The notes below the pieces were generated by a model. That model was given only the letters and a program-made list of their open reading frames with translations, did no database searches and was not told where the DNA came from. A stretch of DNA of 12,064 nt from Conexivisphaerales archaeon (GTDB taxonomy: Archaea > Thermoproteota > Nitrososphaeria > Conexivisphaerales > DTJL01), in assembly GCA_049509455.1 (NCBI GenBank), contig JBEKZX010000046.1, positions 1 through 12,064 on the forward strand, written 5' to 3'. Of this stretch, positions 1-12,064 are shown piece by piece (position 1 is the stretch's first letter; each line of letters starts with the position of its first letter). Made by a program: the position numbers and the translations under genes.

Positions 1-2
1 TA

Positions 3-623
3 GGCATCAGCGAAATCGACCTCTATCAGATGCACTGGACGGACCCCTGGGAGCAGGTCCCCCTCCGGGAGACGATGGAGGGATTGAAGAAGCTGCACCG
101 GGACGGGAAGGTAAGGTCGGTGGGGGTGAGCAACTTCGCGGTCAGGGACCTCAAGGAAGCTCGCGAGCTCTTGGACGGCCTGGATATCGTCTCCGACCAA
201 GTGAGGTACAACCTGCTGCAAAGGGAGGTCGAGGCTGAAGTCCTTCCCTACTGCATGGAGGAGGGGATCTCGGTCATAGCATGGAGCCCGCTGGCGAAAG
301 GCGTGCTCACTGGGAAGTACTCGACGGGGAAGGTGCCGAAGGACCAGGTCAGGGTGGATGGGAAGCTCTTCAACTCTCGCAACCTGAAGGAGGCGGAAGG
401 CCTCTTGGAGGCGTTGAGAGAGGTGGCGTCAAAGCGGGGCAAGACCATGGCCCAGGTCTCTTTGAACTGGCTGCTGAGCAGAGGTGGGGTCGTGGCCATT
501 CCTGGAGCGAAGAAGCCCAGGCAGGCGGAGGAGAACGCAGGGGCCACAGGCTGGAGGCTCACGCAGGCGGAGATCCGAAGGATAACGGAAGCCGCCGCGA
601 AGACGCACCTTTCCTACTTTTGA
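3..623 (+). CDS. Aldo/keto reductase, 5'-truncated by the window edge
   Basis: The frame is open upstream of the track ATG (GISEIDLYQMHW, the typical 'IDLYxxHWP' motif). It also shows GKVRSVGVSNF, NLLQRE, VIAWSPLAKGVLTGKY, MAQVSLNWLL and IPGAKKPRQAEENAGA, all classic AKR motifs. Confidence 0.95.
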   Translation, partial: GISEIDLYQMHWTDPWEQVPLRETMEGLKKLHRDGKVRSVGVSNFAVRDLKEARELLDGLDIVSDQVRYNLLQREVEAEVLPYCMEEGISVIAWSPLAKGVLTGKYSTGKVPKDQVRVDGKLFNSRNLKEAEGLLEALREVASKRGKTMAQVSLNWLLSRGGVVAIPGAKKPRQAEENAGATGWRLTQAEIRRITEAAAKTHLSYF

Positions 624-729
624 GTTCAGTGACCGTGTCGGCGTCGGTCGCCAACGCTGTAAGTGGTTACCGCCCAGATGAACTGCGCATAGAAGTGCTT
701 TGACCGTGCAGACGAGTTAACGGTCTCCA

Positions 730-951
730 TCAGATGACAATTTCGATAACCTTGTCTCTGGATCTCGCCCCACTCACAAGGCGGATTCTTGACTTAGGGA
801 CCTTGAAGTGCTTGGCCAGAATCTCCACAAGCCTCTTGTTGGCCCGGCCCTCTACAGCCCTTTCGTCCACTTTCACTTCGAAGATGTTTTCGCCTATTCT
901 GACTACATTGGCTTCCCTTGCATTGGTGCTCACGTGAACCGCGATTAGCAC
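730..951 (-). CDS. yggU: DUF167 / UPF0235 (YggU-like) family protein
   Basis: 73 aa, GTG start. The motifs VKVDERAVEGRANKRLVEILAKHFKVPKSRIRLVSGARSRDKVIEI match the family pattern 'PxxGkANxxLixxLAxxfxVxksxVxIvxGxtSRxK'. Confidence 0.9.
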   Translation of the reverse strand: MLIAVHVSTNAREANVVRIGENIFEVKVDERAVEGRANKRLVEILAKHFKVPKSRIRLVSGARSRDKVIEIVI

Positions 952-1088
952 ACCATTGGTGCCACAATCGCTTCACTCTAAACCTTGCGGAGGCTCCGCA
1001 GTCGATGCGCCCGGTTGCTGAATCTAAGGTCGCACCAGGATTCAGTTGAATGATTCGAGTCCTGTCTCCATCTCACGACTTCGAGCGC

Positions 1089-1113
1089 GCCCATTCGCAA
1101 GTCCAAGCCTACG
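1089..1113. repeat. Dispersed short repeat, copy 1 (GCCCATTCGCAAGTCCAAGCCTACG)
   Basis: Matches 9764..9789 with one substitution and one 1-nt indel. Overlaps the stop codon of the methyltransferase. Confidence 0.6.
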
Positions 1114-1879
1114 CCTGAAGTCCACAATCCGAGATCGCCAAAGGCTCTGTGATCGGTTCCTCACTCGGTTGGCTCACGGGCTTGGTCCCGAAGAAAAATA
1201 CGTACTTCCTGAGCGGCGGCCCCATGGCAATGACGAACTGAGGGACGCTCCCACCTCGAAAGGAGCTCACCCCTTCGAAACCCGCTGCCCTGAGAAGCAA
1301 CTCCAACGTTCGGTCGGGGAGCAGCCTCCACACGACGAAGCTGCTCTTGAAAGGAAGTGGGATGTGTCGAATTCTTCTGGGCTCGTCGCCGCCAGCCATC
1401 TCCCTCACTCCCAGGTGGCCGTCTTCTTTGAGGATGCGGAAGGTCTCGTGCATTGCTAGGGCCGGATTGGGGAGGAACCTCAAGGTCCCCGTGCATGTGC
1501 TGGCTCCAAAACTTGAGTCTCTGAACGGCATCGCTTCCACGTCTCCCAACACGAATTCGCTCGCTTCCTTCTGGCCAGCCCGCTCGATCTTTCGACTAGC
1601 CCTTTCGAGCATCTCAATGGAGAAATCCAGCCCAACCATCAGGTCCGGATGGCCTTCGCCGACCAAGCGCAAAAGCGTGCCGGTGCCGCAACCCAAGTCG
1701 AGCAACCTGGAGGGCTTCGAATCACCCAGCGCCCTCAACAGGGTCGTGTGGGACCTGGCAATCAAGGGCCCCAGAAACCAGCAGGTGATGAACTCGTAAA
1801 CTCGGCTCATCAGAGTGTCATAGCCTTCCTTTACGGTGGCTTTGTCAATGGCAGCCGAAGGCTCGACGGGAAACGACAT
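1109..1879 (-). CDS. Class I SAM-dependent methyltransferase (UbiE/Methyltransf_11-like)
   Basis: Motif I LLDLGCGTG, followed by VGLDFSIEMLERA, GDVEAMPFRDSSF and NPALAMHETFRILKEDGHL. The start is placed at ATG 1879 (MSFPVEP), 16 nt after the radical SAM stop and preceded by a G-rich tract. The track start at 1951 overlaps the upstream gene. Confidence 0.9.
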   Translation of the reverse strand: MSFPVEPSAAIDKATVKEGYDTLMSRVYEFITCWFLGPLIARSHTTLLRALGDSKPSRLLDLGCGTGTLLRLVGEGHPDLMVGLDFSIEMLERASRKIERAGQKEASEFVLGDVEAMPFRDSSFGASTCTGTLRFLPNPALAMHETFRILKEDGHLGVREMAGGDEPRRIRHIPLPFKSSFVVWRLLPDRTLELLLRAAGFEGVSSFRGGSVPQFVIAMGPPLRKYVFFFGTKPVSQPSEEPITEPLAISDCGLQA

Positions 1880-1895
1880 GGTAACATCCGCCCCC

Positions 1896-3248
1896 TTAGT
1901 AGATTCGTCTGCCGTCGCGATCTGCGAGGTAATACGCGCAGAAGGGCACAAGCTGCCCCCCCGGCCTGATTATGTGGACGCGGCACCTCCTCATCCTCTC
2001 GACGTCGAGCGTCCAGCCGTCTTGAAAGGCCATCATGGAGATGGAAAGTATCTTCTTTGACTCAGCTCCCTCGATTTCCAGGCCCAAACCCGCAAGATAC
2101 CTCCTGAGCCTGTCGAACGTCTCCCTTTCATTCGAAACGTCCCAGAGCTTGGGGATGGCCTTGGTGACCGTGCAACACGGATTCTCGAGGCGGTTCACGA
2201 CATCAACGGCGTCCACGATTCTTGAAAGGGGGATTAGCCCCTCCTCTCCTGCGAGGGCGAGGGTCACGGCTGAACAGGAATGGTGAAGCGACGGTATAGG
2301 GAAGAAGTCCCTAGCCGCCACTTCACCCCCGGTCTGGGCCTCGATGGCCCGGACGACGTCGGGGATAGTGGTCCTGTCCTCGGAGTTCTTCAGGTCGTCG
2401 GGAAACCTTCCAAGGTAGGTGGCTGGCTGGAAGTTGACTCCCTTGATCTCTTCTCTGGCCGCGGCGAGCCTTATGAGGTCGCCAAGCTGTCCATCGTTAA
2501 CTCCCTTTACAACCGCTGGCACTAGCACGACTGCCAGATGGCTCCTCCTGCAGTTCTCGAGGGCTTTCATCTTGACGTCAAGGAGGTCGATACCTCTGAG
2601 CTTCCGGTACACTCTGTCATCGAGGCCATCGAACTGCAGATAGATGGCACTCACTCCGGCCTCGGCCAGCCTTTCGGCCACCAACGGGTTGTTTCCAAGA
2701 GCCACCCCATTCGTATTGATTTCGATGTGGCGTAAGCCCATCTCTCTCCCCATGCTGACGATCTCTGCGAGGTCTCTTCGGGTCGTCGGCTCTCCTCCCG
2801 ACAGCTGGACGGGGCGGGTCGCGCCACCGTTGTCGACTACGGTCTTGAACTCTTCTGCCAGGGCTTCCAGTGAAGGCTCCTCCCTCCTTCCTTCATTCGA
2901 TGCCGCGAAGCACACCTTACATCTCAGGTTGCACCGGTTCGTAACTTCGACGATGGCCACGCATGTCCCCTGCTCATGCGACTCGCACAGGCCGCATTCG
3001 AAAGGGCACGCATCCTTCATCTCTCCTGCTTGGTTAATGTCGAACATCTCCTTGTAGGAGAAATACATCCCGCTGTCGCTCCAGACTAGAGCCCGGAAGG
3101 ACCCATGTTTCTCGCAGGTCTTCTCCATGTAGATCCTGCCGCCCTCCTCGGTCAGCGTCGCCGATACAGGCTGGAGGCAGACGGGGCAGACGCTCTTGGT
3201 TTCGGTCCTGCCTCGCAAGAACGGCCCCAGTGCGGGGGTTTGAATCAA
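1896..3248 (-). CDS. Multi-cluster radical SAM protein of the Tes/GDGT-MAS (MJ0619, COG1964) / TrsS-like family
   Basis: Radical SAM motif C106xxxC110xxC113, plus QLSGGEPT, INTNG, YLQFDG and GVNFQP. N-terminal C21xxC24...C45xxH48 and C81xxxC85xxC88xxH91. C-terminal HSC, MAFQDxW, RRC and PFCAY. The TTG start overlaps the upstream TGA (TTGA). Confidence 0.9.
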   Translation of the reverse strand: MIQTPALGPFLRGRTETKSVCPVCLQPVSATLTEEGGRIYMEKTCEKHGSFRALVWSDSGMYFSYKEMFDINQAGEMKDACPFECGLCESHEQGTCVAIVEVTNRCNLRCKVCFAASNEGRREEPSLEALAEEFKTVVDNGGATRPVQLSGGEPTTRRDLAEIVSMGREMGLRHIEINTNGVALGNNPLVAERLAEAGVSAIYLQFDGLDDRVYRKLRGIDLLDVKMKALENCRRSHLAVVLVPAVVKGVNDGQLGDLIRLAAAREEIKGVNFQPATYLGRFPDDLKNSEDRTTIPDVVRAIEAQTGGEVAARDFFPIPSLHHSCSAVTLALAGEEGLIPLSRIVDAVDVVNRLENPCCTVTKAIPKLWDVSNERETFDRLRRYLAGLGLEIEGAESKKILSISMMAFQDGWTLDVERMRRCRVHIIRPGGQLVPFCAYYLADRDGRRIY

Positions 3249-4384
3249 ACCTGAGCGGACAACCTCACGAGGTTCTCCACAAGGCAGAGGCCGCTGAACT
3301 GCGACTTGCTACGCCTATAGATGGATTCGTAGTCAGGCAAGCTCCCCTGCTCGAGAAGGTCAAAGGCATGAACGACCCTGACTCCTGATTCCTTGGTGAC
3401 GGCGCCGAGCTGGACGCCGCACGAATTGCAGAAGGTGACGATGGTGTCCGCGCCATGCTCCTTAGCGTCCCTCGTTCTCACCCTCGCTCCTTCCTTGGCC
3501 AAGCTCTCGTTAGCATAGCTCACCGCCCCTCCCGCTCCGCAGCACAGGAGCGAGTCCCGGGAGTACTTCATCTCGACCCGCTTCCCCCCGTAGAATGTGT
3601 CCACGAACTTCCTGGAGACGTCGAAGAGCTCAGGGTTCTGCCTGTAGGGGCAGGAGTCATGTATCGCCACGGTCCCCAGGTCCGTTCGGCCCCCAGGTTT
3701 GGAAGGAGCCAAGGTGTCCAGGAGCGCCTCGGCCGCGAATGTAACTTTGGCAAATCCGATGTCGGGCTTGAAGTTGTTATAGCAATTGGGGCAGGCAGTA
3801 ATGATCTCATTGGGCTGGAGCCTCTCAAGGAGTTCAACCACGGATTTGTGGTGCTCTTCATACTCCTTCCTCGCGCCGATTATCTTGAGGGGCTTCCCGC
3901 AGCACTCGTATTTCATGATATATGGGTCTCCCAGCAGATGGCCCACTTTCTCCATCAGTTCAGGCCTGTATCCCCTTAGGGAGCACCCGGGGAAGAAGAC
4001 CCTGTCGGCGTGCTCGGGATAATCGATCTTCCTGTGGGCCGAGCCGTCGAGGAGGCTGAAGAAGTTCACTTTCCTGTTCACGTACAGCGGCGTATGTGCG
4101 GCCAGAGGCCCCTGGCCGCTGGCGACGTAAGATTCGCGCACGGCCAACATCAGGTCCTTGACGCTGACGTCGTAGGGGCACTGCGTTTCACAGAAGCCGC
4201 AGAACGTGCACCTGTAGGCCACGATGGCATCGTCCACGTCCACCGTGCCCTCCTTGAGGGACTTCGACAGCCCCTTGAGGAACCTCTTCTCGAACCCCTG
4301 GTAGGAGGGGCAGTGCCTGAGGCAAGCGAAACAGTCGGTGCACTTCTCGAACTCTTTGACGACCTCCTCTTTGCTAGGATTCAT
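3245..4384 (-). CDS. (Fe-S)-binding protein, HdrD/GlpC-like: 4Fe-4S dicluster plus two CCG domains
   Basis: Two ferredoxin motifs (C15xxC18xxC21xxxC25P and C59xxC62xxC65xxxC69P). Two CCG repeats: FFPGC...ECCG...TACPNC and HDSC...LCCGAGG...TFCNSC. Confidence 0.9.
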   Translation of the reverse strand: MNPSKEEVVKEFEKCTDCFACLRHCPSYQGFEKRFLKGLSKSLKEGTVDVDDAIVAYRCTFCGFCETQCPYDVSVKDLMLAVRESYVASGQGPLAAHTPLYVNRKVNFFSLLDGSAHRKIDYPEHADRVFFPGCSLRGYRPELMEKVGHLLGDPYIMKYECCGKPLKIIGARKEYEEHHKSVVELLERLQPNEIITACPNCYNNFKPDIGFAKVTFAAEALLDTLAPSKPGGRTDLGTVAIHDSCPYRQNPELFDVSRKFVDTFYGGKRVEMKYSRDSLLCCGAGGAVSYANESLAKEGARVRTRDAKEHGADTIVTFCNSCGVQLGAVTKESGVRVVHAFDLLEQGSLPDYESIYRRSKSQFSGLCLVENLVRLSAQV

Positions 4385-4385
4385 T

Positions 4386-5045
4386 CTATAGCACCAGGCC
4401 CGCCATCCTCAGGAGCGCCCAAACATCATTGAATATAAAGTAGGCCCCGATGAGGGCGAGGACGGGGCCAACGACCCACTTGACCTGCACTCTGTGGCGT
4501 CTCAGGAGTCCTGCTACTGGGACCGCCAGGAGATAGGCCAACAGGGCGGCCCCTGCGACGGTCAATCCAAGTCCGAATGCATAGGCGACGGCTTCGTAGG
4601 TGAGAGAGGAGCTCGTAGCGGAGAAGAGCTTGCTGTAAATCTGCAATACGGCCAGGTCTCTGGTCGAAAGGTAGTTCATCCAGAGTGCTCCGAAGAGTAT
4701 GCCCATCATGAATGTTCCGTAGCACCAAGCCAGGAAGTTCTCCCTCGCCGCGCGAATCACGAAAGCACCCTCCCTTCGGGCCACGGCATAGCCCAGCCAG
4801 ACTAGGAGCAGTCCCCAAATGATGTCCAGTTCGTGGGCGTCTAGGAGGAAGACCGTGGGAAAGGCGCGAATGAGCACGATGCTGATTCCGAAGATGAAGA
4901 CGACTCCGGCCGGGAAGAGGAGCAGCCTCGATAAGATCCTCTTCTTCCCTAGGTCATCTGCGACGTTGAAAAGAATGAGAAGGAGTAGACTCGGGAGGAC
5001 GACCAAAGAAAGTCCCCCCGAGAGCCCCGCGATCAGCGCGTCCAA
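4386..5045 (-). CDS. CcdA/DsbD-transmembrane-fold integral membrane protein lacking the redox cysteines
   Basis: 219 aa with about 6 hydrophobic segments. GLSLVVLP sits where CcdA has xxSPCVLP and FGALWMNY sits where CcdA has FGxxWxPC, followed by AYAFGLGL and a C-terminal VGPVLALIGAY. TTG start; 1-nt gap to the next gene. Confidence 0.7.
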   Translation of the reverse strand: MDALIAGLSGGLSLVVLPSLLLLILFNVADDLGKKRILSRLLLFPAGVVFIFGISIVLIRAFPTVFLLDAHELDIIWGLLLVWLGYAVARREGAFVIRAARENFLAWCYGTFMMGILFGALWMNYLSTRDLAVLQIYSKLFSATSSSLTYEAVAYAFGLGLTVAGAALLAYLLAVPVAGLLRRHRVQVKWVVGPVLALIGAYFIFNDVWALLRMAGLVL

Positions 5046-5060
5046 TCGAGTTCACGGAAC

Positions 5061-5735
5061 CTAGGATGCTATTTGATAGATGAAGGTTACGTTTTGCCCT
5101 GGTTGTATGAGGTTCGAGTTCAGGGTCCACATCAAGGGCGATTCCCAACCGTTGACGTTGCTGCTGACTATCCCTATCGCGCAGGAGAAGAAGCAGGCCA
5201 TGCATCCCGTCCCCACCGCGGTGTTGGTGGCTAGGTTCCCGCCGAACCCGAATGTGCCAACTCCGGAAGTGAGATTGTAGTTGTTGAACAGGTCCGTGAG
5301 CAAGTACTTCTTGGGGGCTCCGGTCCAAGTCACGTAGATGGTGATGTGGGTTCCGGTCGTCAGCGTGCCCGCCGGCGAACTAAGCAGGACATTGTTGGAC
5401 GGCACGGCGCCCAAGCTCACCAGCGCGTTGTAGAGCTCGGTAGGAGTCACCACAGTCGTGAATGCTGCCTGGTCTGCTATGCTGCCGCCTTCCCAGTTCA
5501 AGCCATGCATCGTCGCGTTGACGAAAGCCGCAGGGTTGGCCGTAGCTTGTATCATGACCTCCTTGTTAGAGGATTCGACGTATATCGCCAGGCTATTCCG
5601 GGCGTTCGTCAGGCTGATGATCGTCTGCTCTTGGAGCAGCCAGCCTCCCGAGAATCCGATGGCTAGGCCGACGATGAGAAACACCGCCAGCGCCACAGTT
5701 TTCGAAACGGCGCGTCTTGATTTCAAGGTAATCAA
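5061..5735 (-). CDS. ydjY: YdjY-domain exported protein with CxxCxxxC motif
   Basis: FGFGGN...TGCMACFFSCAIGIVSS, TPTELYNALVSLGAVPSNN and IYVTWTGAPKKY resemble E. coli YdjY as recalled (FGGN...TGCxxCxxSCxxGIVSN). N-terminal KSRRAVS followed by a hydrophobic stretch. TTG start. Confidence 0.8.
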   Translation of the reverse strand: MITLKSRRAVSKTVALAVFLIVGLAIGFSGGWLLQEQTIISLTNARNSLAIYVESSNKEVMIQATANPAAFVNATMHGLNWEGGSIADQAAFTTVVTPTELYNALVSLGAVPSNNVLLSSPAGTLTTGTHITIYVTWTGAPKKYLLTDLFNNYNLTSGVGTFGFGGNLATNTAVGTGCMACFFSCAIGIVSSNVNGWESPLMWTLNSNLIQPGQNVTFIYQIAS

Positions 5736-5757
5736 GACTGCTTACGAGCTATGGGCA

Positions 5758-5772
5758 CATATTAATGCTTTG
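5758..5772 (-). promoter_or_regulatory. Putative BRE/TATA promoter of the five-gene operon
   Basis: The minus strand reads AAAGC-ATTAATAT about 24 nt upstream of the TTG at 5735, the geometry expected for an archaeal leaderless transcript. Confidence 0.5.
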
Positions 5773-6105
5773 TATGTTGAATAAGTACGTGTAAGTAGCT
5801 TCGCTTACCAAGTCTTGGATTTGGTGGACCCGACGTCCCATTCTCAGTCAATTAACCTATTGTTTTCAATAACATAAAGATGATTAAGTGATAGTCGTGT
5901 GTGTCGGTCAGGTTCATAGAACAAGCTCTTTCCGGCAGCGACAGATATCCAAAAGTATCGAGCGACCTCATATGCACAAGCCGTGCTCTGCCCCGTCGGT
6001 AGGCAGGCCAGAACCCAAGGTATGCGCTTGTTGGAAGCGCCGCCTTCATCGAGTTCTGCGGTTGGACCATGAAGACCATCTTGAGCAGGATCCGCTGGGA
6101 AAGGC

Positions 6106-7080
6106 TCAGCCTGCGTAGAATCTCTTGAAGACGCGGGCGACGGCGTAGGAGACCCACAGCCTCGTGTCCTTGTCCCTCCCCCGGAGGAGCCTGAGGTCCC
6201 AGGTGCCGTCCGGGCCCTGCCGCTCAGCCAGCCAGGCCAGACCCTCCACTATCTTGGGCTCGTCCCGGCTGAGGCCTAGCAGCGAAAGGGAGTCCGTGGC
6301 GGAAACGAGGTCCGTGAACCAGAAAGGATAGGAGAAGCCGGTCCAGAAGCTGGGGTCCCCCCTGTCTGGGTAGTAGTCCCTTTCCAGGATGCGGGAGCAC
6401 AGGAACCGTGCCGCGTCCAGCGCGACTTGCGACCTCCTGTGAACCTGGTGGGCGGCGTACGCCCTAAGGACCATTCCCGTGACCAGGTGTGAGGAGGGCT
6501 TCGAGCGGAGGGGCTCGACGGTGGGCTTGTTCATCCAGATGACGTTGAGCTTCAGGTCCCTGGTGCGCAGCGGGAGGGCCCATCCGCCGTCGTCCTGCCG
6601 CATGGAGGCGAGCCAGGAGAAGCCCCTCTCGACCCTGGAGTCGTCGCGGTAGCCCGCCTTAATCATGAGCTCAAGCATTGCCGCCGTGTAGTAAGGCGCG
6701 TACTGGTGTCCCAATATGCCCCGGATATCCCCCTCTTCGGTCTGGTGAGAGAGCAGGAACTCGCATGCCTTCTCCACAGCCGGGTGCTCCCGAGTGAAGG
6801 CATACTTCTCGACGAGTTCGCCCAGGGACCGGAAGGTCTCGATCTGGTCGTAGTCCTCCCCCGAGCGAATCTTGGGGTTCCCTCCCGGATAGCGCCAGCC
6901 GCCACTCGGCCTCTGTCTCCTCAACAGCCTCTCCGCACGATCCTCCGTCCAGATCCGGCGGAGGTCTACGTCCTCGTCTTGGAGGTCCCGCCTCGCCTTT
7001 AGCGCCAATGCCTGGTTTCGCGACGCGACAGGTGGCGCAACGGGATCGTGTCTCAGAGTCCTCCGCCAGTCTTTCGCCAA
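6106..7080 (-). CDS. Prenyltransferase/squalene-oxidase (QW) repeat protein, single (alpha/alpha)6 barrel
   Basis: QW-type repeats RLLRRQRPSGGW, EFLLSHQTEEGDI, SWLASMRQDDGGW and AWLAERQGPDGTW. The start is proposed at TTG 7080 (MAKDWRRTLRHDP), with CTTATTT about 30 nt upstream; the track ATG at 7167 is an alternative. Confidence 0.85.
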   Translation of the reverse strand: MAKDWRRTLRHDPVAPPVASRNQALALKARRDLQDEDVDLRRIWTEDRAERLLRRQRPSGGWRYPGGNPKIRSGEDYDQIETFRSLGELVEKYAFTREHPAVEKACEFLLSHQTEEGDIRGILGHQYAPYYTAAMLELMIKAGYRDDSRVERGFSWLASMRQDDGGWALPLRTRDLKLNVIWMNKPTVEPLRSKPSSHLVTGMVLRAYAAHQVHRRSQVALDAARFLCSRILERDYYPDRGDPSFWTGFSYPFWFTDLVSATDSLSLLGLSRDEPKIVEGLAWLAERQGPDGTWDLRLLRGRDKDTRLWVSYAVARVFKRFYAG

Positions 7081-7417
7081 GAAAGCTTCGGTCCCGTGTC
7101 GCAAGGGGAGCGAAATAAGGGTTGGCGTCCCTCGACGGGAGCCGACAGGTTCGCTTGGGATGGTCATTACCTGTCGGAGGCAACAGTCCTTCCAGTTGTC
7201 GAACTGACATCGATATCTACGCGCTGGGCAAGCTCAAAGATGAGGCGTCGATGGAGGATATGCAGACGCCTGCGACATTGCGGGGTCTAGCTCGCTGCCT
7301 TGGGCTCGAAATGACTAGTGTTCAGTATCGTTTCAACCATGTGGGAGACGGTATCAAGATCGTTTCACCGAACCTATTTACCCCATCGTTTCCACATAGC
7401 ATCCGTGGCCAAAAAGA

Positions 7418-7825
7418 ATGACACAAGACACGACATCCGGTTATCCGAACACCGCTTCGATACTCGCCCTAGTGGGCGGTATCCTGATAGTGTTATGCGG
7501 AATGCTACTTGCGGCCGTCGGAGCTTTCATCCTACCGTACATCGACTACACGCATCTGCGGGCCCCCGCCAATATCACCAATCTCCCCGGGCTCGTATCT
7601 GGCGTTGTCACAATGGTAGGGCTGTTCGGGCTGATATCGGGAATCATAGTGCTGGTATCGGCAGTGATGCTCCGAGCGTATCCGAGTCAGAGGAGAACAT
7701 GGGGCGTGCTCATGTTGGTCTTCTCTGTCCTGAGCTTCTTGGGGGTAGGAGGCTTCGTCCTGGGGGCGATTCTGGGGATAGCGGGGGGCATAATGACCCT
7801 GACATGGAAACCACGGATTCAGTAG
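7418..7825 (+). CDS. Small polytopic membrane protein, DUF6114-like
   Basis: 135 aa with about 4 hydrophobic segments. The C-terminal GGFVLGAILGIAGGIMTLTWKP resembles the DUF6114 pattern GGFxxGxxLGxxGGxxxxxW. Confidence 0.75.
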   Translation: MTQDTTSGYPNTASILALVGGILIVLCGMLLAAVGAFILPYIDYTHLRAPANITNLPGLVSGVVTMVGLFGLISGIIVLVSAVMLRAYPSQRRTWGVLMLVFSVLSFLGVGGFVLGAILGIAGGIMTLTWKPRIQ

Positions 7826-7912
7826 TGTCGGTTATCGGGGAACCTTGACGATCTGTTGGGCTCGGATGAGGTAAAGGATTTATCCCATAAGTAGAAGTAG
7901 GAAGCAATAGAG

Positions 7913-8425
7913 ATGGAGAAGCTCAAGGTTCTGCTGATATTGCTCTTGACGGCGACCTTCGGGCTTGCGGTGTCCATGTACGTCCTTGCGATGAGCCTCG
8001 CTCCGACTGAGTCGCCGTTGAGCGTACTCGCTCGGATTATGATGCGGGGTTTCTCGTCGGACCTACCCTTCTTCATACCGCTATCGTCTCTCCTTTTTCT
8101 TTGTACCGTCCTCGCCAGCATGGTAGGGGTCATCTACTTCCTCGTCCTTCCTGAGATGAAGGACTATGTGTCGGGCAATGGGAAGGACACCATCTCAATA
8201 GTCCCGAGGACCCTCAAGCCCGAGGAGAGGAAGGTAGTCAGCGTGCTTGACGCCCACGGAGGCACCTATCTACAGAAATTCATCACAAAAGAAGCCGCTC
8301 TATCAAGACTGAAGACACACAGGGTCGTCGCTGCGCTTTCGGAGCGAGGCATTGTCCACGCTGAGAAGCGGGGAAACACGAACGAGGTCTCGCTCGCGAA
8401 GTGGTTCCAGGACGGAATGCATTAG
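7913..8425 (+). CDS. Membrane-anchored winged helix-turn-helix protein (COG2512/DUF7343-like)
   Basis: Two N-terminal TM helices, then LKPEERKVVSVLDAHGGTYLQKFITKEAALSRLKTHRVVAALSERGIVHAEKRGNTNEV, the wHTH pattern typical of this family. Confidence 0.85.
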   Translation: MEKLKVLLILLLTATFGLAVSMYVLAMSLAPTESPLSVLARIMMRGFSSDLPFFIPLSSLLFLCTVLASMVGVIYFLVLPEMKDYVSGNGKDTISIVPRTLKPEERKVVSVLDAHGGTYLQKFITKEAALSRLKTHRVVAALSERGIVHAEKRGNTNEVSLAKWFQDGMH

Positions 8426-8586
8426 TAGCGCAATTTCAACGACCTTTTTGAGACTCATTGTACCTTTGTGAGAAATCAAGGCGTCGGTCGGCAGCATTGG
8501 TTTGCGGGAAGAGCCCTAACCAGGCCCAGAGCCGGACGGCAGAGGGCTCGGACTAGACGGCGTTTCATGGAAGGGACGGCAGCGGC

Positions 8587-8724
8587 TCATTCCTTCTTCT
8601 TCATGGCCTGGGACACCATTTCAGGCATCTTGGACGCCATCTCCTTGCAGAGGTCCATCAGCGCCTCGTTCACCTCGACGTCCACGGTGACCCTGACGTG
8701 CCCCTTCTTCTTCTCCTCGCTCAA
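8587..8724 (-). CDS. 45-aa small protein MSEEKKKGHVRVTVDVEVNEALMDLCKEMASKMPEMVSQAMKKKE (not in the ORF track)
   Basis: TTG at 8724 lies 7 nt downstream of GGGAGGTGA and 3 nt after the upstream stop. Third codon positions are strongly G/C. TGA at 8589-8587. Confidence 0.8.
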   Translation of the reverse strand: MSEEKKKGHVRVTVDVEVNEALMDLCKEMASKMPEMVSQAMKKKE

Positions 8725-8727
8725 TCG

Positions 8728-8985
8728 CTATTCACCTCCCTTCTCTGGATCCAGGAAGAGGTCCACCTCGAAGACGTAGTGATACTTCTTGACCCTCTTC
8801 GCCCTTATCCTGTAGTCGGAGATGGTGCCCCTCTCCTTGTACTTCTTGAGCTGACGCCCCATGTACAGCTTGACCAGCCTAGGGAAGAACCTCTCAAACC
8901 TGAACGAGGCCCTGACCAGCCCCGATTTTGCCCGACTGGCCAACTTCACAGAGGCGCACCCTCCGCCTGACTTGTCGGTGTCCAA
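8728..8985 (-). CDS. 85-aa basic hypothetical protein
   Basis: Protein-like composition and G/C-ending codons. It carries the SD of the next gene in its 3' end. The exact start (TTG 8985) is uncertain. Confidence 0.75.
   Translation of the reverse strand: MDTDKSGGGCASVKLASRAKSGLVRASFRFERFFPRLVKLYMGRQLKKYKERGTISDYRIRAKRVKKYHYVFEVDLFLDPEKGGE
8732..8740 (-). promoter_or_regulatory. Strong Shine-Dalgarno site GGGAGGTGA for the 45-aa ORF
   Basis: Canonical anti-16S motif embedded in the last codons (KGGE) of the upstream gene. Confidence 0.75.
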
Positions 8986-9206
8986 GGCACCTCTTAAGCG
9001 CGTCGGGTTATCCGCAAAGGGACAAAACCCATGAAAGCGCGATTCATGTTTGTCTAAGCTACAGGTTGCGCAGACTTAAGCTTCTGAAATCTTGCCTACG
9101 TCTGCCCAAAGCTCAAGGTGAAGGTACCTGCGAAATAGGTCTGTAACGTCAACCCAATCACCCTGACCGGATAACCTTATTTCATATCGCCTCTTAACTG
9201 CTATTC

Positions 9207-9743
9207 ATGGCCGCAAAAGTCGTCAGCTCCCTGGCTTTGGAGAACCGTGCCCACCCCACTTTGGCTTTTGATGTTGAGGATGATTTCGGCGCAGGCCAAC
9301 AGGCATTTGTAGGGATTGAAGGATGGTTGAAAGCCATGACAACTGCGCCTGCAGGCGGCAAATCTCACACTGGTCGAAATATTGGCATCGTAGTAGTGGT
9401 TCTGGCTGTTGTGGTCGTTGGTTATCTACTCCTGACACTGGGCACATCTCTGGGTCATCTGACACCGTCCACGGTCACAGTCACAGGTTCTGTAAGCACC
9501 ACAGGAGTTGGCACCCATGCAGTGAGCGTCGGTTTTAGCAGCGATGACGGCCAAGTATTCAACGCTGCGGTAGTGAACGGTCAGTACAGTGTTAGCCTTC
9601 CGAACGACCATACCTACTCGGTTCAAATTGGGTGGTCGGGGTTTGGCTTTTCTGGAATTTGTAATGCGGGGTCCTTACCCGTGAACCAAGGACCTGGGAG
9701 CTCGGGTTTAACGAACAATTGGTCTTGCTGGCCTGAGAGCTGA
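9207..9743 (+). CDS. Membrane-anchored exported beta-rich protein (alternative start ATG 9336)
   Basis: A single TM helix (IGIVVVVLAVVVVGYLLL) followed by a Thr/Gly/Val-rich beta-strand pattern (TVTVTGSV, NGQYSVSLPNDHTYSVQI) and a Cys pair (ICNAG...NWSC). TTATTT lies about 22 nt upstream of 9207. Confidence 0.7.
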   Translation: MAAKVVSSLALENRAHPTLAFDVEDDFGAGQQAFVGIEGWLKAMTTAPAGGKSHTGRNIGIVVVVLAVVVVGYLLLTLGTSLGHLTPSTVTVTGSVSTTGVGTHAVSVGFSSDDGQVFNAAVVNGQYSVSLPNDHTYSVQIGWSGFGFSGICNAGSLPVNQGPGSSGLTNNWSCWPES

Positions 9744-9763
9744 CAAACTCAGAATTGAACTGG

Positions 9764-9789
9764 GCCCATTTCGCAGGTCCAAGCCTACG
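9764..9789. repeat. Dispersed short repeat, copy 2 (GCCCATTTCGCAGGTCCAAGCCTACG)
   Basis: Near-identical to 1089..1113. Lies in the gap between convergent genes. Confidence 0.6.
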
Positions 9790-9918
9790 TTCGAGATTGG
9801 CGGTTGATGTCATACTTTGCAGCAGCAAGAGATATCCAAGATTATGAGGTCTAACAGGAAAGACGGGGTTGTTATCAGACCGATGACTGCTGAAGACGCG
9901 CACTGCCAGAATTGCTCT

Positions 9919-10290
9919 TTATGATTCCTTCTTTGGTTCGGTCTTTGCTGTTTCTTCTTCGACTGTCTTCGAAGCTCCCTTTATCTCGACTCTAATCTCC
10001 CTCAACAGGTTGACGCCCAAGGATGCAATTCTTCCACCACCCCACATGACGAAAGCCATTAGAACATACCAAGCAGCCATACCAGCAGCCTTGTCCAATT
10101 CTTGGCCTGAAATCAGCAGCATGCTGTTTAGAGAAATGTCAGAGAAATTGAACAGTTTCGGAGGGGGGCTGCCGCCTGTGAAGACGAACATCATCTCGAA
10201 GATTGAGAGGAAGATCATGATGACGCCCCCGGCCAACAAGACGTATCCCACAGTCTTTTCGTCTTTCAACTTTACACGTTTCAGCCTCAC
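9919..10290 (-). CDS. Hypothetical two-TM membrane protein
   Basis: 123 aa, GTG start. TM1 is VGYVLLAGGVIMIFLSIFEMMFVF and TM2 is AAWYVLMAFVMWGGGRIASLGVNLL, followed by a charged tail. Confidence 0.8.
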   Translation of the reverse strand: MRLKRVKLKDEKTVGYVLLAGGVIMIFLSIFEMMFVFTGGSPPPKLFNFSDISLNSMLLISGQELDKAAGMAAWYVLMAFVMWGGGRIASLGVNLLREIRVEIKGASKTVEEETAKTEPKKES

Positions 10291-10310
10291 ACGTTACTGA
10301 AGTTACTTGC

Positions 10311-10317
10311 TATAAAA
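10311..10317 (-). promoter_or_regulatory. TATA box (TTTTATA) for the 9919..10290 gene
   Basis: Lies about 21 nt upstream of the GTG start, consistent with a leaderless mRNA. Confidence 0.55.
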
Positions 10318-10661
10318 GCTTGAATGCAAGGTGCTGCTCTGAATGTGATTACGAACGAAGGGGAAAATCATGAAATACTTCATGACAAACCAACGGTCCG
10401 ATTGAAACAACCGATTCTCCAGCAAGATGATAACTAGCCATGGTTCCATAGCAGAACCGATACCCAAGGATAGAACGAGTTGCGGGAAAAGAACTTTTCA
10501 GAGAACCGCGAAAGAAGTTGCAGCGGACCAACGCTCAAGTAGCCGGATTTGACATCTGCAAGACTCAAGATTCAAGAAGAGAGCTAGTAGAAACTGACGG
10601 AATCGCCACGGTTCAAGAAACGATTATAACATGACGAAGTGCATGGTAGGGCGGAGAAACG

Positions 10662-11171
10662 ATGAAAGGAACTCGTCTTTTCAGCATAATCGGAGGGCTG
10701 ATTCTGATCGTTGCGGCATTCCTCCCGTATGGCTACTCCACATGGGCTTCGGGGTCGACCTTCGATGTGACGATGAAATTGCTGAACAACTTGAACAGCG
10801 ACAACGTGATGTTCAGCGAGCTGACGCAGATAGGCCTCTCGAATACAATGTCGGCAGTGGTACTGGGCATGGTCATCGTCGCGTTCTTCCTGTTCGTTGT
10901 GGGTGGAGTTCTGGCACTCGTTATGACTGGCGGAGGGTCTGTCGCAGGACCGGTGGGGGCAGTCCTTCTTACAATCGTGCCGTTCCTAGCCGGAGGAACA
11001 GCATCAGCCATCACAGGGTTGGGGGTAGGTTACTGGTTGGGATGGGTTGGAGCCATCATTTGCGTAATAGGTGCCGCAGGCAAGTCCAAGCTCGAAGGGA
11101 TGAACCTGTTCGTAAACCAGACCGTCAATGTCCAGCAGCCACCGCCCGCTCAGCCCTCCCAGGGTAGCTAG
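10662..11171 (+). CDS. Hypothetical polytopic membrane protein with Pro/Gln-rich tail
   Basis: 169 aa with about 4 hydrophobic segments and a GxGYW motif in the last TM. GATTATAA lies about 33 nt upstream and a GGCGGAG SD-like site precedes the start. Confidence 0.8.
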   Translation: MKGTRLFSIIGGLILIVAAFLPYGYSTWASGSTFDVTMKLLNNLNSDNVMFSELTQIGLSNTMSAVVLGMVIVAFFLFVVGGVLALVMTGGGSVAGPVGAVLLTIVPFLAGGTASAITGLGVGYWLGWVGAIICVIGAAGKSKLEGMNLFVNQTVNVQQPPPAQPSQGS

Positions 11172-11219
11172 GCGCTCGCCTTCGGTTCCTGGACGATTCG
11201 ACGAGCGCTCCTCCTTTTT
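11172..11219 (+). terminator. Possible terminator: GCGCTCG/CGAGCGC stem followed by a pyrimidine and oligo-T tract
   Basis: 7-bp inverted repeat (11172-11178 and 11202-11208) immediately after the stop codon, then TCCTCCTTTTT. Confidence 0.4.
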
Positions 11220-11688
11220 ATCTGGTACCACCGAGAGCATGCCAGAATGGAGTCGCGGTGGCAATTCTTGCAATTGAGAGTGAGTTAGTTCAATTCAGTC
11301 GGCGATCCCTCTCAGATAGAACCCTGAATGATATGAGTGCGGACTCGGACATGAAGTCCGGCGCCCCAGGGATTCGTAGACGGGCAACTCTTGTGCAGTA
11401 ATGTCGATTTCCTTTCAAGCTGCTATGGAGACCTAGGAATGGGGATGCGCTGACGAAAGTGACGCACCATATTTGCTCCACGGGGGAGGCGGCCATCTCA
11501 CCTCATCGGAAGTGGGACCCGCACCCGCCGCGGCCCTTTGGTGGTTCCGTATGACCCCTTGTGATGTTGTCAGTTGAGAATTGACTCGCGTTCAGCATTG
11601 CATTGTGAGGGCAAACGAAAGGGTGACTTGAGGCAGATCCGCAACCGAGTTGTTGGCGACGATGCGGCCATCCATTTCTGTGAGTCTC

Positions 11689-12063
11689 TCATGTGGAGAA
11701 TCTCTTTCCGCAGCTGCGGCAGAACTGAGCGGACGCCGCGTTCGCAGTGCCGCAGGCCTGGCAGTACTTTGTGGTCTTGACTTCTGCCTTGGCCGAGGGC
11801 GGCGGAAGCACATTGACCGTCTGGGTGATCGACATCCCCTTGGGGGGCGCCTGTCCCCCTCCACCTCTTCGCCTCGTCATGATGAGCCCTAGGACCACGA
11901 TCGCGATGACGACTATTAGGACGACGTAAAGCGTATTGCCGCTGAGAAGGTTACGCATCGAAAACGCATTGGCAGAGGTATTGGTTGAAGTGACGGTGGA
12001 CGTACCGGTGGAGGTATTGGATGAGGATGTCATGACGGCCGTCCACCACTGATCCACGGTCGT
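11689..12063 (-). CDS. C-terminal part of a surface protein: Ser/Thr linker, TM anchor, cytoplasmic zinc ribbon (5'-truncated)
   Basis: The frame is open to the window edge. It contains TSSSNTSTGTSTVTSTNTS, a hydrophobic helix, RRRGGGG, and CQACG-x9-CRSCG (two CxxC). Confidence 0.85.
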   Translation of the reverse strand, partial: TTVDQWWTAVMTSSSNTSTGTSTVTSTNTSANAFSMRNLLSGNTLYVVLIVVIAIVVLGLIMTRRRGGGGQAPPKGMSITQTVNVLPPPSAKAEVKTTKYCQACGTANAASAQFCRSCGKRFST

Positions 12064-12064
12064 C

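Follow-up and report, generated by a model that had tools for sequence, protein, structure and literature searches.

Why would an archaeon with a canonical tetraether synthase (Tes) carry a second gene of the same superfamily, embedded in an operon of its own? This question is raised by contig JBEKZX010000046.1 of a Conexivisphaerales archaeon (DTJL01), of which we analysed positions 1-12,064 (the whole stretch, referred to below as the window); the corresponding genome, labelled G000, is 95.5% complete. The gene product, an enzyme of the radical S-adenosylmethionine (SAM) type, is related to Tes and to TrsS, and resembles GDGT-MAS (MJ0619), an enzyme forming C(sp3)-C(sp3) bonds between lipid tails, as in glycerol dialkyl glycerol tetraethers (GDGTs). 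Our data suggest that the window enzyme is probably not the tetraether synthase of its host, but a member of a third lineage within the Tes/TrsS superfamily, an archaeal one; it is encoded in a five-gene operon and would use Tes-type radical chemistry to form a different product. The gene and its domains are as follows.

1896..3248, minus strand: radical SAM enzyme of 450 amino acids, TrsS-like member of the Tes/GDGT-MAS superfamily, TTG start at 3248
3078..3203, minus strand: rubredoxin-like zinc-ribbon domain, residues 16-57 (C21, C24, C45, H48), Pfam PF23545 (Zn_ribbon_HMPTM), 3.9e-19
2961..3008, minus strand: N-terminal auxiliary [4Fe-4S] motif C81-x3-C85-x2-C88-x2-H91 with Cys96, from alignment
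2463..2951, minus strand: radical SAM core, residues 100-262, Pfam PF04055, 6.2e-28, 98.5 bits (cut-off 29.5)
1938..2285, minus strand: C-terminal auxiliary-cluster domain with C325, M406, C422 and C437, from alignments

The open reading frame (ORF) lies on the minus strand, which an initial annotation of this DNA had left unstated. Its TTG start at 3248 has an overlap of 4 nucleotides (nt) with the stop of the preceding gene, which encodes an HdrD-like protein (3245..4384), and gene callers have also recorded a 440-residue form starting at an alternative TTG at 3218. In three genomes from this genus, the orthologues comprise exactly 450 codons as well, with an ATG at the matching start position. 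Comparison with these orthologues yielded a ratio of nonsynonymous to synonymous substitution rates (dN/dS) of 0.10-0.15, indicative of purifying selection, which together with the intact ligands rules out a pseudogene or inactive relic. Scans for bacterial promoters and terminators returned no more sites than were found in shuffled sequence.

A codon-by-codon check confirmed the entire set of motifs claimed in the initial annotation (CxxC...CxxH, CxxxCxxCxxH, the SAM triad and HSC/M-AFQD/RRC/PFC). The rubredoxin-like motif reads C21-x2-C24-x20-C45-x2-H48, its spacing matching that of C9X2C12X20C33X2H36 in GDGT-MAS (PMC9433317). Our family alignment comprised 70 TrsS proteins of a mainly bacterial group termed A (67 bacterial and a few archaeal), 22 Tes proteins and 28 TrsS-like proteins from archaea; the zinc-ribbon ligand columns are kept in 119 of these 120 members, the exception being one bacterial TrsS with Cys in place of H48, while C81, C85, C88 and H91 are invariant across all groups. 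The SAM cluster triad C106-x3-C110-x2-C113 (2910-2933) places the protein within the radical SAM superfamily. In the C-terminal domain, C325 (HSC), M406 (MMAFQDGW), C422 (RRC) and C437 (PFC) are accompanied by the stretch H425-I426-I427. HMMER alignment with the GDGT-MAS structure 7TOL (8.8e-94) matched M406 to the labile Met439, A407 to the His that follows it and I426 to Tyr459, so that the differences from GDGT-MAS given in the initial annotation (MAFQDGW for MHFxDxYN, and H-I-I for the IHY tyrosine) proved to be correct.

An AlphaFold (AF2) model built from 113 homologues was obtained with a predicted local distance difference test (pLDDT) score of 86.6 and a predicted template modelling (pTM) score of 0.90. 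Foldseek matched this model to 7TOL with an E-value of 8e-43 and a template modelling (TM) score of 0.82, and VIA-align matched it to 7TOM with a Z-score of 47.6 over 407 aligned residues at 38% identity; MoaA was the second-best fold (Z 20.9). The ligand motifs are homologous to those of GDGT-MAS in both the HMMER and VIA-align comparisons. The window enzyme is predicted to be a functional radical SAM protein with the four cofactor sites of GDGT-MAS, namely a rubredoxin-like iron site, an auxiliary [4Fe-4S] cluster near the N-terminus, the cluster at which SAM is cleaved and a C-terminal auxiliary cluster bearing a labile Met.

We subsequently asked where the protein belongs within this superfamily. 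Its profile matches to the NCBIfam models for TrsS (1.6e-137) and Tes (5.8e-114) are far beyond chance; however, both fall below the respective equivalog cut-offs, with 458.7 bits to TrsS NF045646 (cut-off 490) and 381.4 bits to Tes NF045702 (cut-off 450). Bacterial TrsS proteins, by comparison, score 553-685 bits to NF045646 (loci L034 and L062). A canonical Tes is encoded elsewhere in the genome, on contig 59 (G000:C59:19578-21020, 717.3 bits), and the window gene is therefore a paralogue, as had been proposed.

The residues that set the protein apart from Tes are shared with its TrsS-like relatives. Cys96 is found in all 98 TrsS-like proteins versus 2 of the 22 Tes proteins, and positions 407, 412 and 426, which are His, Tyr and Tyr in every Tes (22 of 22), are Ala, Trp and Val or Ile in TrsS-like proteins. 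Positions G142, S326 and S404 likewise separate the two groups, the window protein agreeing with the TrsS-like one, and the MAFQDxW motif is a trait of the TrsS-like family. The altered C-terminal signature and the Cys96 highlighted in the initial annotation are thus real, but they are the signature of a family rather than a peculiarity of this protein. Most discriminating positions flank the C-terminal cluster ligands in the sequence, and the difference from Tes appears to lie in the reaction centre, not in the cofactor set.

Phylogenetic trees were computed with FastTree (115 rows) and with IQ-TREE under LG+C20 with posterior mean site frequencies (PMSF; 57 rows); both trees are unrooted. 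Bacterial TrsS formed a group with a few archaeal sequences, including Hadarchaeota, at a support of 100, and Tes formed another (100 in FastTree, 99 in IQ-TREE). The clade of the window protein (support 97-99) nests in neither Tes nor TrsS proper and joins a group from Bathyarchaeia, Thermoprotei and Nezhaarchaeales at 88-89. The closest named relatives are proteins from metagenome-assembled genomes (MAGs) of Conexivisphaerales and Bathyarchaeia. Residues, length and neighbours all put the protein on the TrsS side, in line with the suggestion that it is closer to TrsS, which is borne out by 459 versus 381 bits, by the residues and by the partner genes; a TrsS of the bacterial type it is not, being below the cut-off and in a distinct archaeal clade. 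Nesting within Tes, sole possession of a Tes-like gene and non-homology of the motifs, all of which the annotation had named as findings that would count against it, were not observed, and the tree check it had called for places the protein outside the Tes clade.

In the sister archaeal clade (L043, L037/P0026, P0082, P0116, L224 and L226, from Bathyarchaeia, Thermoprotei and Nezhaarchaeales), G-C-H-F-A-Q-D replaces S-M-M-A-F-Q-D, placing a Cys-His pair at the position of Met439 of GDGT-MAS; the C-terminal cluster may have a different ligand in these proteins.

The radical SAM gene is the fourth of a five-gene operon on the minus strand, whose other members are, in order of transcription, as follows.

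5061..5735, minus strand: YdjY-domain protein with an N-terminal membrane anchor, first gene (NCBIfam NF040466, 81.6 bits, cut-off 50; synteny)
4386..5045, minus strand: DsbD/CcdA-fold membrane protein, probably with six helices (feature matches of 0.93-0.94 to DsbD_TM/DsbD_2 clusters; synteny)
3245..4384, minus strand: HdrD-like iron-sulfur protein with an HdrC-like 2x[4Fe-4S] part and two CCG domains (Pfam CCG, 4.9e-22; Fer4)
1109..1879, minus strand: class I SAM methyltransferase, 256 amino acids, ATG at 1879, last gene (Pfam Methyltransf_11, 4e-19)

Adjacent genes are separated by gaps of 1, 15 and 16 nt or, in one case, overlap by 4 nt. The module recurs in the genus relatives (G002, G003 and G004), with the methyltransferase gene sometimes placed ahead of the enzyme gene. 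Each of the ten metagenomic loci from the window clade shows it too, wherever the contig is long enough, at 50-74% identity. The genes flanking the module are not conserved. The HdrD-like gene adjoins the enzyme gene in all loci of the clade and is translationally coupled to it in the window. Its product has matches in the Protein Data Bank (PDB) to HdrC and HdrB, and among NCBIfam models it scores best to NF045663, 'diclust_near_Sec', matching only the C-terminal portion (158 bits, cut-off 530). The window methyltransferase scores 71.9 bits to the NCBIfam MenG/UbiE model and 60.5 bits to DVU_1556 (NF045667, cut-off 155). The YdjY-domain protein carries an invariant CxxCxxxC motif (C178, C181, C185); its structural model (pLDDT 76) gave no Foldseek match, and the best VIA-align match, to the DUF371 structure 7Y7N (Z 6.8), lies in the chance range. 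The CcdA-fold protein is without the canonical redox Cys pair in the window genus, while sister lineages keep its first Cys (LPCLP), and C108 in the motif AWC[YF]GTF is invariant in 10 of 10 aligned sequences.

We also considered an NCBIfam 'variant radical SAM' protein (NF045502) as a sixth member of the module and rejected it, the window genome containing only a 20.6-bit match. Such a protein does lie beside the module in two sub-lineages (L134:10117-11364, L136:10295-11530 and L138:3301-4542, at 171-189 bits; also in L139). Elsewhere in the window, a 353-residue protein (6106-7167, minus strand), encoded 370 nt upstream of the operon, partially matches a squalene-hopene-cyclase repeat (PF13243, 54.7 bits) and is not conserved beside the module in relatives. 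Several small membrane ORFs occupy 7418-11171, and a further one at 11689-12057 (minus strand) encodes a small membrane protein whose N-terminal region is rich in Thr and Ser and which has a single hydrophobic helix and, at its C-terminus, a zinc ribbon (CxxC...CxxC).

The distribution of the enzyme differs from that of Tes. Among 41 related genomes, a full-length TrsS-type paralogue was found in the window genus only (G002, G003 and G004; 71-89% identity), the others having Tes-type copies only and Tes being nearly universal; about 8 of 301 sampled genomes of the phylum carry a full-length TrsS-type copy.

These observations bear on whether the protein could be a second lipid tail-coupling enzyme, that is, a Tes isoenzyme producing GDGT, macrocyclic archaeol or a related lipid under particular conditions. 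It retains all four cofactor sites including Met406, as well as the GDGT-MAS fold over its full length, and a second copy beside a working Tes has a precedent in MA_1114 (PMC8941075). Several further points also weigh against our preferred reading. The centre of the IQ-TREE tree, where the placement relative to Tes would be read, is a polytomy, and an approximately unbiased (AU) test did not reject the window clade plus Tes as one group (log-likelihood difference 11.3, p 0.072). In the window protein, the C-terminal helical insert is about 16 residues shorter than in the Tes proteins sampled and falls about 40 residues short of that in GDGT-MAS; the TrsS insert is short too. Across the window clade the insert has a hydrophobicity like that of Tes, with a grand average of hydropathy (GRAVY) of 0.01 versus -0.14, and a lipid substrate is therefore possible. 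The insert is also more hydrophobic than that of bacterial TrsS, which weakly favours a hydrophobic substrate; our comparison of the lipid pocket with 7TOL was made on segment hydrophobicity and is weak evidence. Tyr459 of GDGT-MAS is strictly conserved in 1,000 homologues, but its Y459F/L variants remain active (PMC9433317), and loss of the Tyr alone therefore does not exclude lipid coupling. In addition, the roles we propose for the HdrD-like, CcdA-fold and YdjY proteins are deduced purely from gene linkage, and the literature we searched contained no functional test of any TrsS-like protein, the sole text match being a table entry in PMC13188914.

Nevertheless, we consider a Tes isoenzyme improbable. 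The reaction-centre His and the residues equivalent to Tyr412 and Tyr426, conserved throughout Tes, are all replaced, and the Tes model score is below its cut-off. Moreover, the gene always sits in an operon whose other members specify two envelope proteins, a methyltransferase and an HdrD-like protein, with no lipid gene among them, and its patchy occurrence contrasts with the near-universal presence of Tes. We infer that either the substrate or the bond formed probably differs from that of Tes.

Could the enzyme, in that case, simply be the orthologue of bacterial TrsS, part of a cassette accompanying enzymes of molybdenum or tungsten, for instance a MOP-type aldehyde oxidoreductase? We compared the operon with 80 TrsS loci in named genomes, 67 of them bacterial, scoring neighbours within 10 kilobases (kb). 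A CCG/dicluster homologue occurs in 53 of the 80 loci (oriented like the TrsS gene in 51, oppositely in 2), and an adjacent methyltransferase is detectable by blastp in 28; the family identities of the partners were confirmed in L062 and L034. In Clostridium tyrobutyricum, genes for a MoeA-like protein, a molybdopterin aldehyde oxidoreductase, a flavoprotein/dicluster reductase, a DVU_1556 methyltransferase and DVU_1555 precede TrsS, which is followed by a DVU_1553 ligase, an XdhC-type factor and a DVU_1551 nucleotidyltransferase. The Chloroflexota MAG locus L034 has a split reductase (HdrA-like and CCG genes), a methyltransferase, two TrsS genes and a ligase; its TrsS genes lie in tandem (9986-11386 and 11413-12762, at 586 and 553 bits).

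The best model match, the signature residues and the CCG and methyltransferase partners are indeed shared with these loci, and the window genome contains at least ten genes for large subunits of xanthine-oxidase-family molybdoenzymes. However, the window protein lies outside the TrsS clade, with its support of 100, and below the TrsS cut-off, and the other bacterial partners are either below their cut-offs in the window genome, namely the aldehyde oxidoreductase NF045668 (383 versus 1100 bits), XdhC-AOR NF045664 (141 versus 350) and the DVU_1553 ligase NF045666 (110 versus 300), or, for DVU_1555 (NF045669) and DVU_1557 (NF045645), have no match there; the DVU_1551 model NF045665 was outside the search set. 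Conversely, blastp against the ORFs of the 80 loci (E <= 1e-5) returned nothing for the YdjY and CcdA-fold partners, which were seen only in the window clade among the loci examined. A straightforward orthologue of bacterial TrsS is, in our view, very improbable. Among the molybdoenzyme genes, two full-length fused xanthine-oxidase-family frames contain in-frame stops (G000:C64:193-2910 and G000:C45:106-2865; one TAG and three TGA, respectively).

Two features of the relatives raise the possibility of chemistry at a heteroatom. The first is a Cys pair near the C-terminal cluster. Position 320 is Cys in 34 of the 70 group A TrsS proteins and selenocysteine (Sec) in one, and it covaries with Cys423, both being present in 31 proteins, neither in 19 and only one in 20. 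The Sec was observed in TrsS from an Acidobacteriota MAG (L045:9879-11156), in which an in-frame TGA falls at 'FIPPG-U-EESHCSFS', five residues before the invariant C325, and aligns with Ser320 of the window protein. In the window subclade, all 17 sequences have S320 and R423 in place of the pair, while Bathyarchaeia-type members of the window clade carry both Cys320 and Cys423. The lineage of the window presumably works without a Cys/Sec320-Cys423 pair.

The second feature is a gene fusion. One sister lineage has its TrsS-like enzyme joined at the C-terminus to an ArsM-like methyltransferase (L134:7779-10124 and L136:7659-10130; proteins P0011 and P0012), which scores 243.8 bits to the arsenite methyltransferase model NF008823 (cut-off 263), and a UbiE-like methyltransferase is still present after the fusion gene. 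The Cys-rich N-terminus of the fused domain and its GCGSP, SNCVINLSPDK and WSAC motifs are what we take to be ArsM hallmarks. Shorter forms (P0008, P0010, L132 and L137) end just past the Cys-rich ArsM N-terminal segment. These natural fusions show that methylation is probably part of the chemistry.

Such observations would fit an organo-metalloid or organo-sulfur operon, in which the radical enzyme would equip a hydrophobic substrate with a C-As, C-Se or C-S bond and the methyltransferase would methylate the heteroatom. Besides the fusions and the Cys/Sec-Cys pair of many TrsS proteins, bacterial DVU_1556-type methyltransferases score 73-98 bits to ArsM models, and GDGT-MAS itself forms a substrate-sulfur bond at its C-terminal cluster, producing a lipid-sulfur adduct (PMC9433317). 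The window methyltransferase, however, is UbiE-like and without ArsM motifs, the Cys pair is replaced by S320/R423, the operon has no ars genes and the ArsM-like gene of the genome lies on another contig, so that we give this alternative little weight for the window operon.

Returning to the third, archaeal lineage with a product of its own, we propose a mechanism by analogy with GDGT-MAS. SAM would be cleaved and the resulting 5'-deoxyadenosyl radical would abstract a hydrogen from a hydrophobic substrate, at an unactivated carbon, after which the substrate radical would be captured at the C-terminal cluster. The remodelled, less polar reaction centre could then direct this intermediate to a product other than coupled archaeol tails, which the partner methyltransferase would methylate. 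The HdrD-like protein may serve as electron donor or may reduce an intermediate that contains sulfur. Transport of substrate or product across the membrane may be the task of the membrane protein and an outward-facing YdjY protein. A bolder version of this scheme, which we regard as rather unlikely, holds that the five genes make up a complete pathway, with Tes-type chemistry redirected from carbon-carbon coupling to a bond between carbon and a heteroatom (S, Se or As). A radical on an unactivated, lipid-like carbon would be caught at an iron-sulfur cluster, followed by methylation and hand-over through the membrane to YdjY. If true, the product would be a modified archaeal lipid or cofactor of a new class, and the TrsS branch would gain a first function. 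That branch includes the bacterial 'Tes homologues' proposed as synthases of branched GDGTs.

Tes homologues beyond the canonical synthases are candidate makers of the bacterial branched GDGTs on which palaeoclimate proxies are based, a role that is so far hypothesised only (PMC8941075). The annotated neighbours of the sampled bacterial TrsS genes are redox, ligase and molybdoenzyme-maturation genes, not lipid genes, which argues against using such homologues as markers of tetraether producers. Because the host has a normal Tes, the product of the second enzyme should be cleanly separable from GDGT synthesis, and the window clade, compact with four conserved partners versus eight or nine in bacteria, offers a tractable entry point.

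Among known systems, the synthase of glycerol monoalkyl glycerol tetraethers (GMGTs), Gms, was considered and rejected as a counterpart, being an AhbD-like SPASM/Twitch enzyme and not of the Tes fold (PMC11214058). MA_1114, the second copy in Methanosarcina acetivorans, gave no GDGT and only traces of macrocyclic archaeol when expressed in Methanococcus maripaludis (PMC8941075). It resembles the window enzyme, by description, as a second Tes-superfamily copy beside a working Tes; the M. acetivorans control genome had no match above the TrsS cut-off.

The fusions of the sister lineages are reminiscent of ArsS/ArsM and ArsL/ArsM, since they likewise join a radical SAM enzyme to an ArsM-like protein, from which the window operon differs in its UbiE-like methyltransferase. 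In arsenosugar and arsinothricin synthesis, where these pairs operate, the radical SAM partner is not known to be of the Tes fold.

Tes and GDGT-MAS (MJ0619; 7TOL, 7TOM; NF045702) share with the window protein the fold, the spacing of the rubredoxin, N-auxiliary and SAM motifs, the C-terminal Cys ligands and the labile Met. In contrast to Tes, the window protein has no His after this Met, lacks Tyr412 and Tyr426, and sits in a different operon context.

The closest parallel is TrsS, listed as a 'radical SAM (seleno)protein' family of selenoproteins with reference to Haft & Tolstoy 2025 (PMC13188914). The window protein resembles it in length (about 450 residues), in its four cofactor motifs, in the residues C96, S404, A407, W412, Val/Ile426 and MAFQD, and in its short C-terminal insert. 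As in TrsS loci, the enzyme gene adjoins genes for a CCG protein and a SAM methyltransferase, both here below the NF045663 and NF045667 cut-offs; unlike in those loci, YdjY and CcdA-fold partners complete the operon. The TrsS family itself had already been named; the novelty lies in the five-gene context of this distinct archaeal clade.

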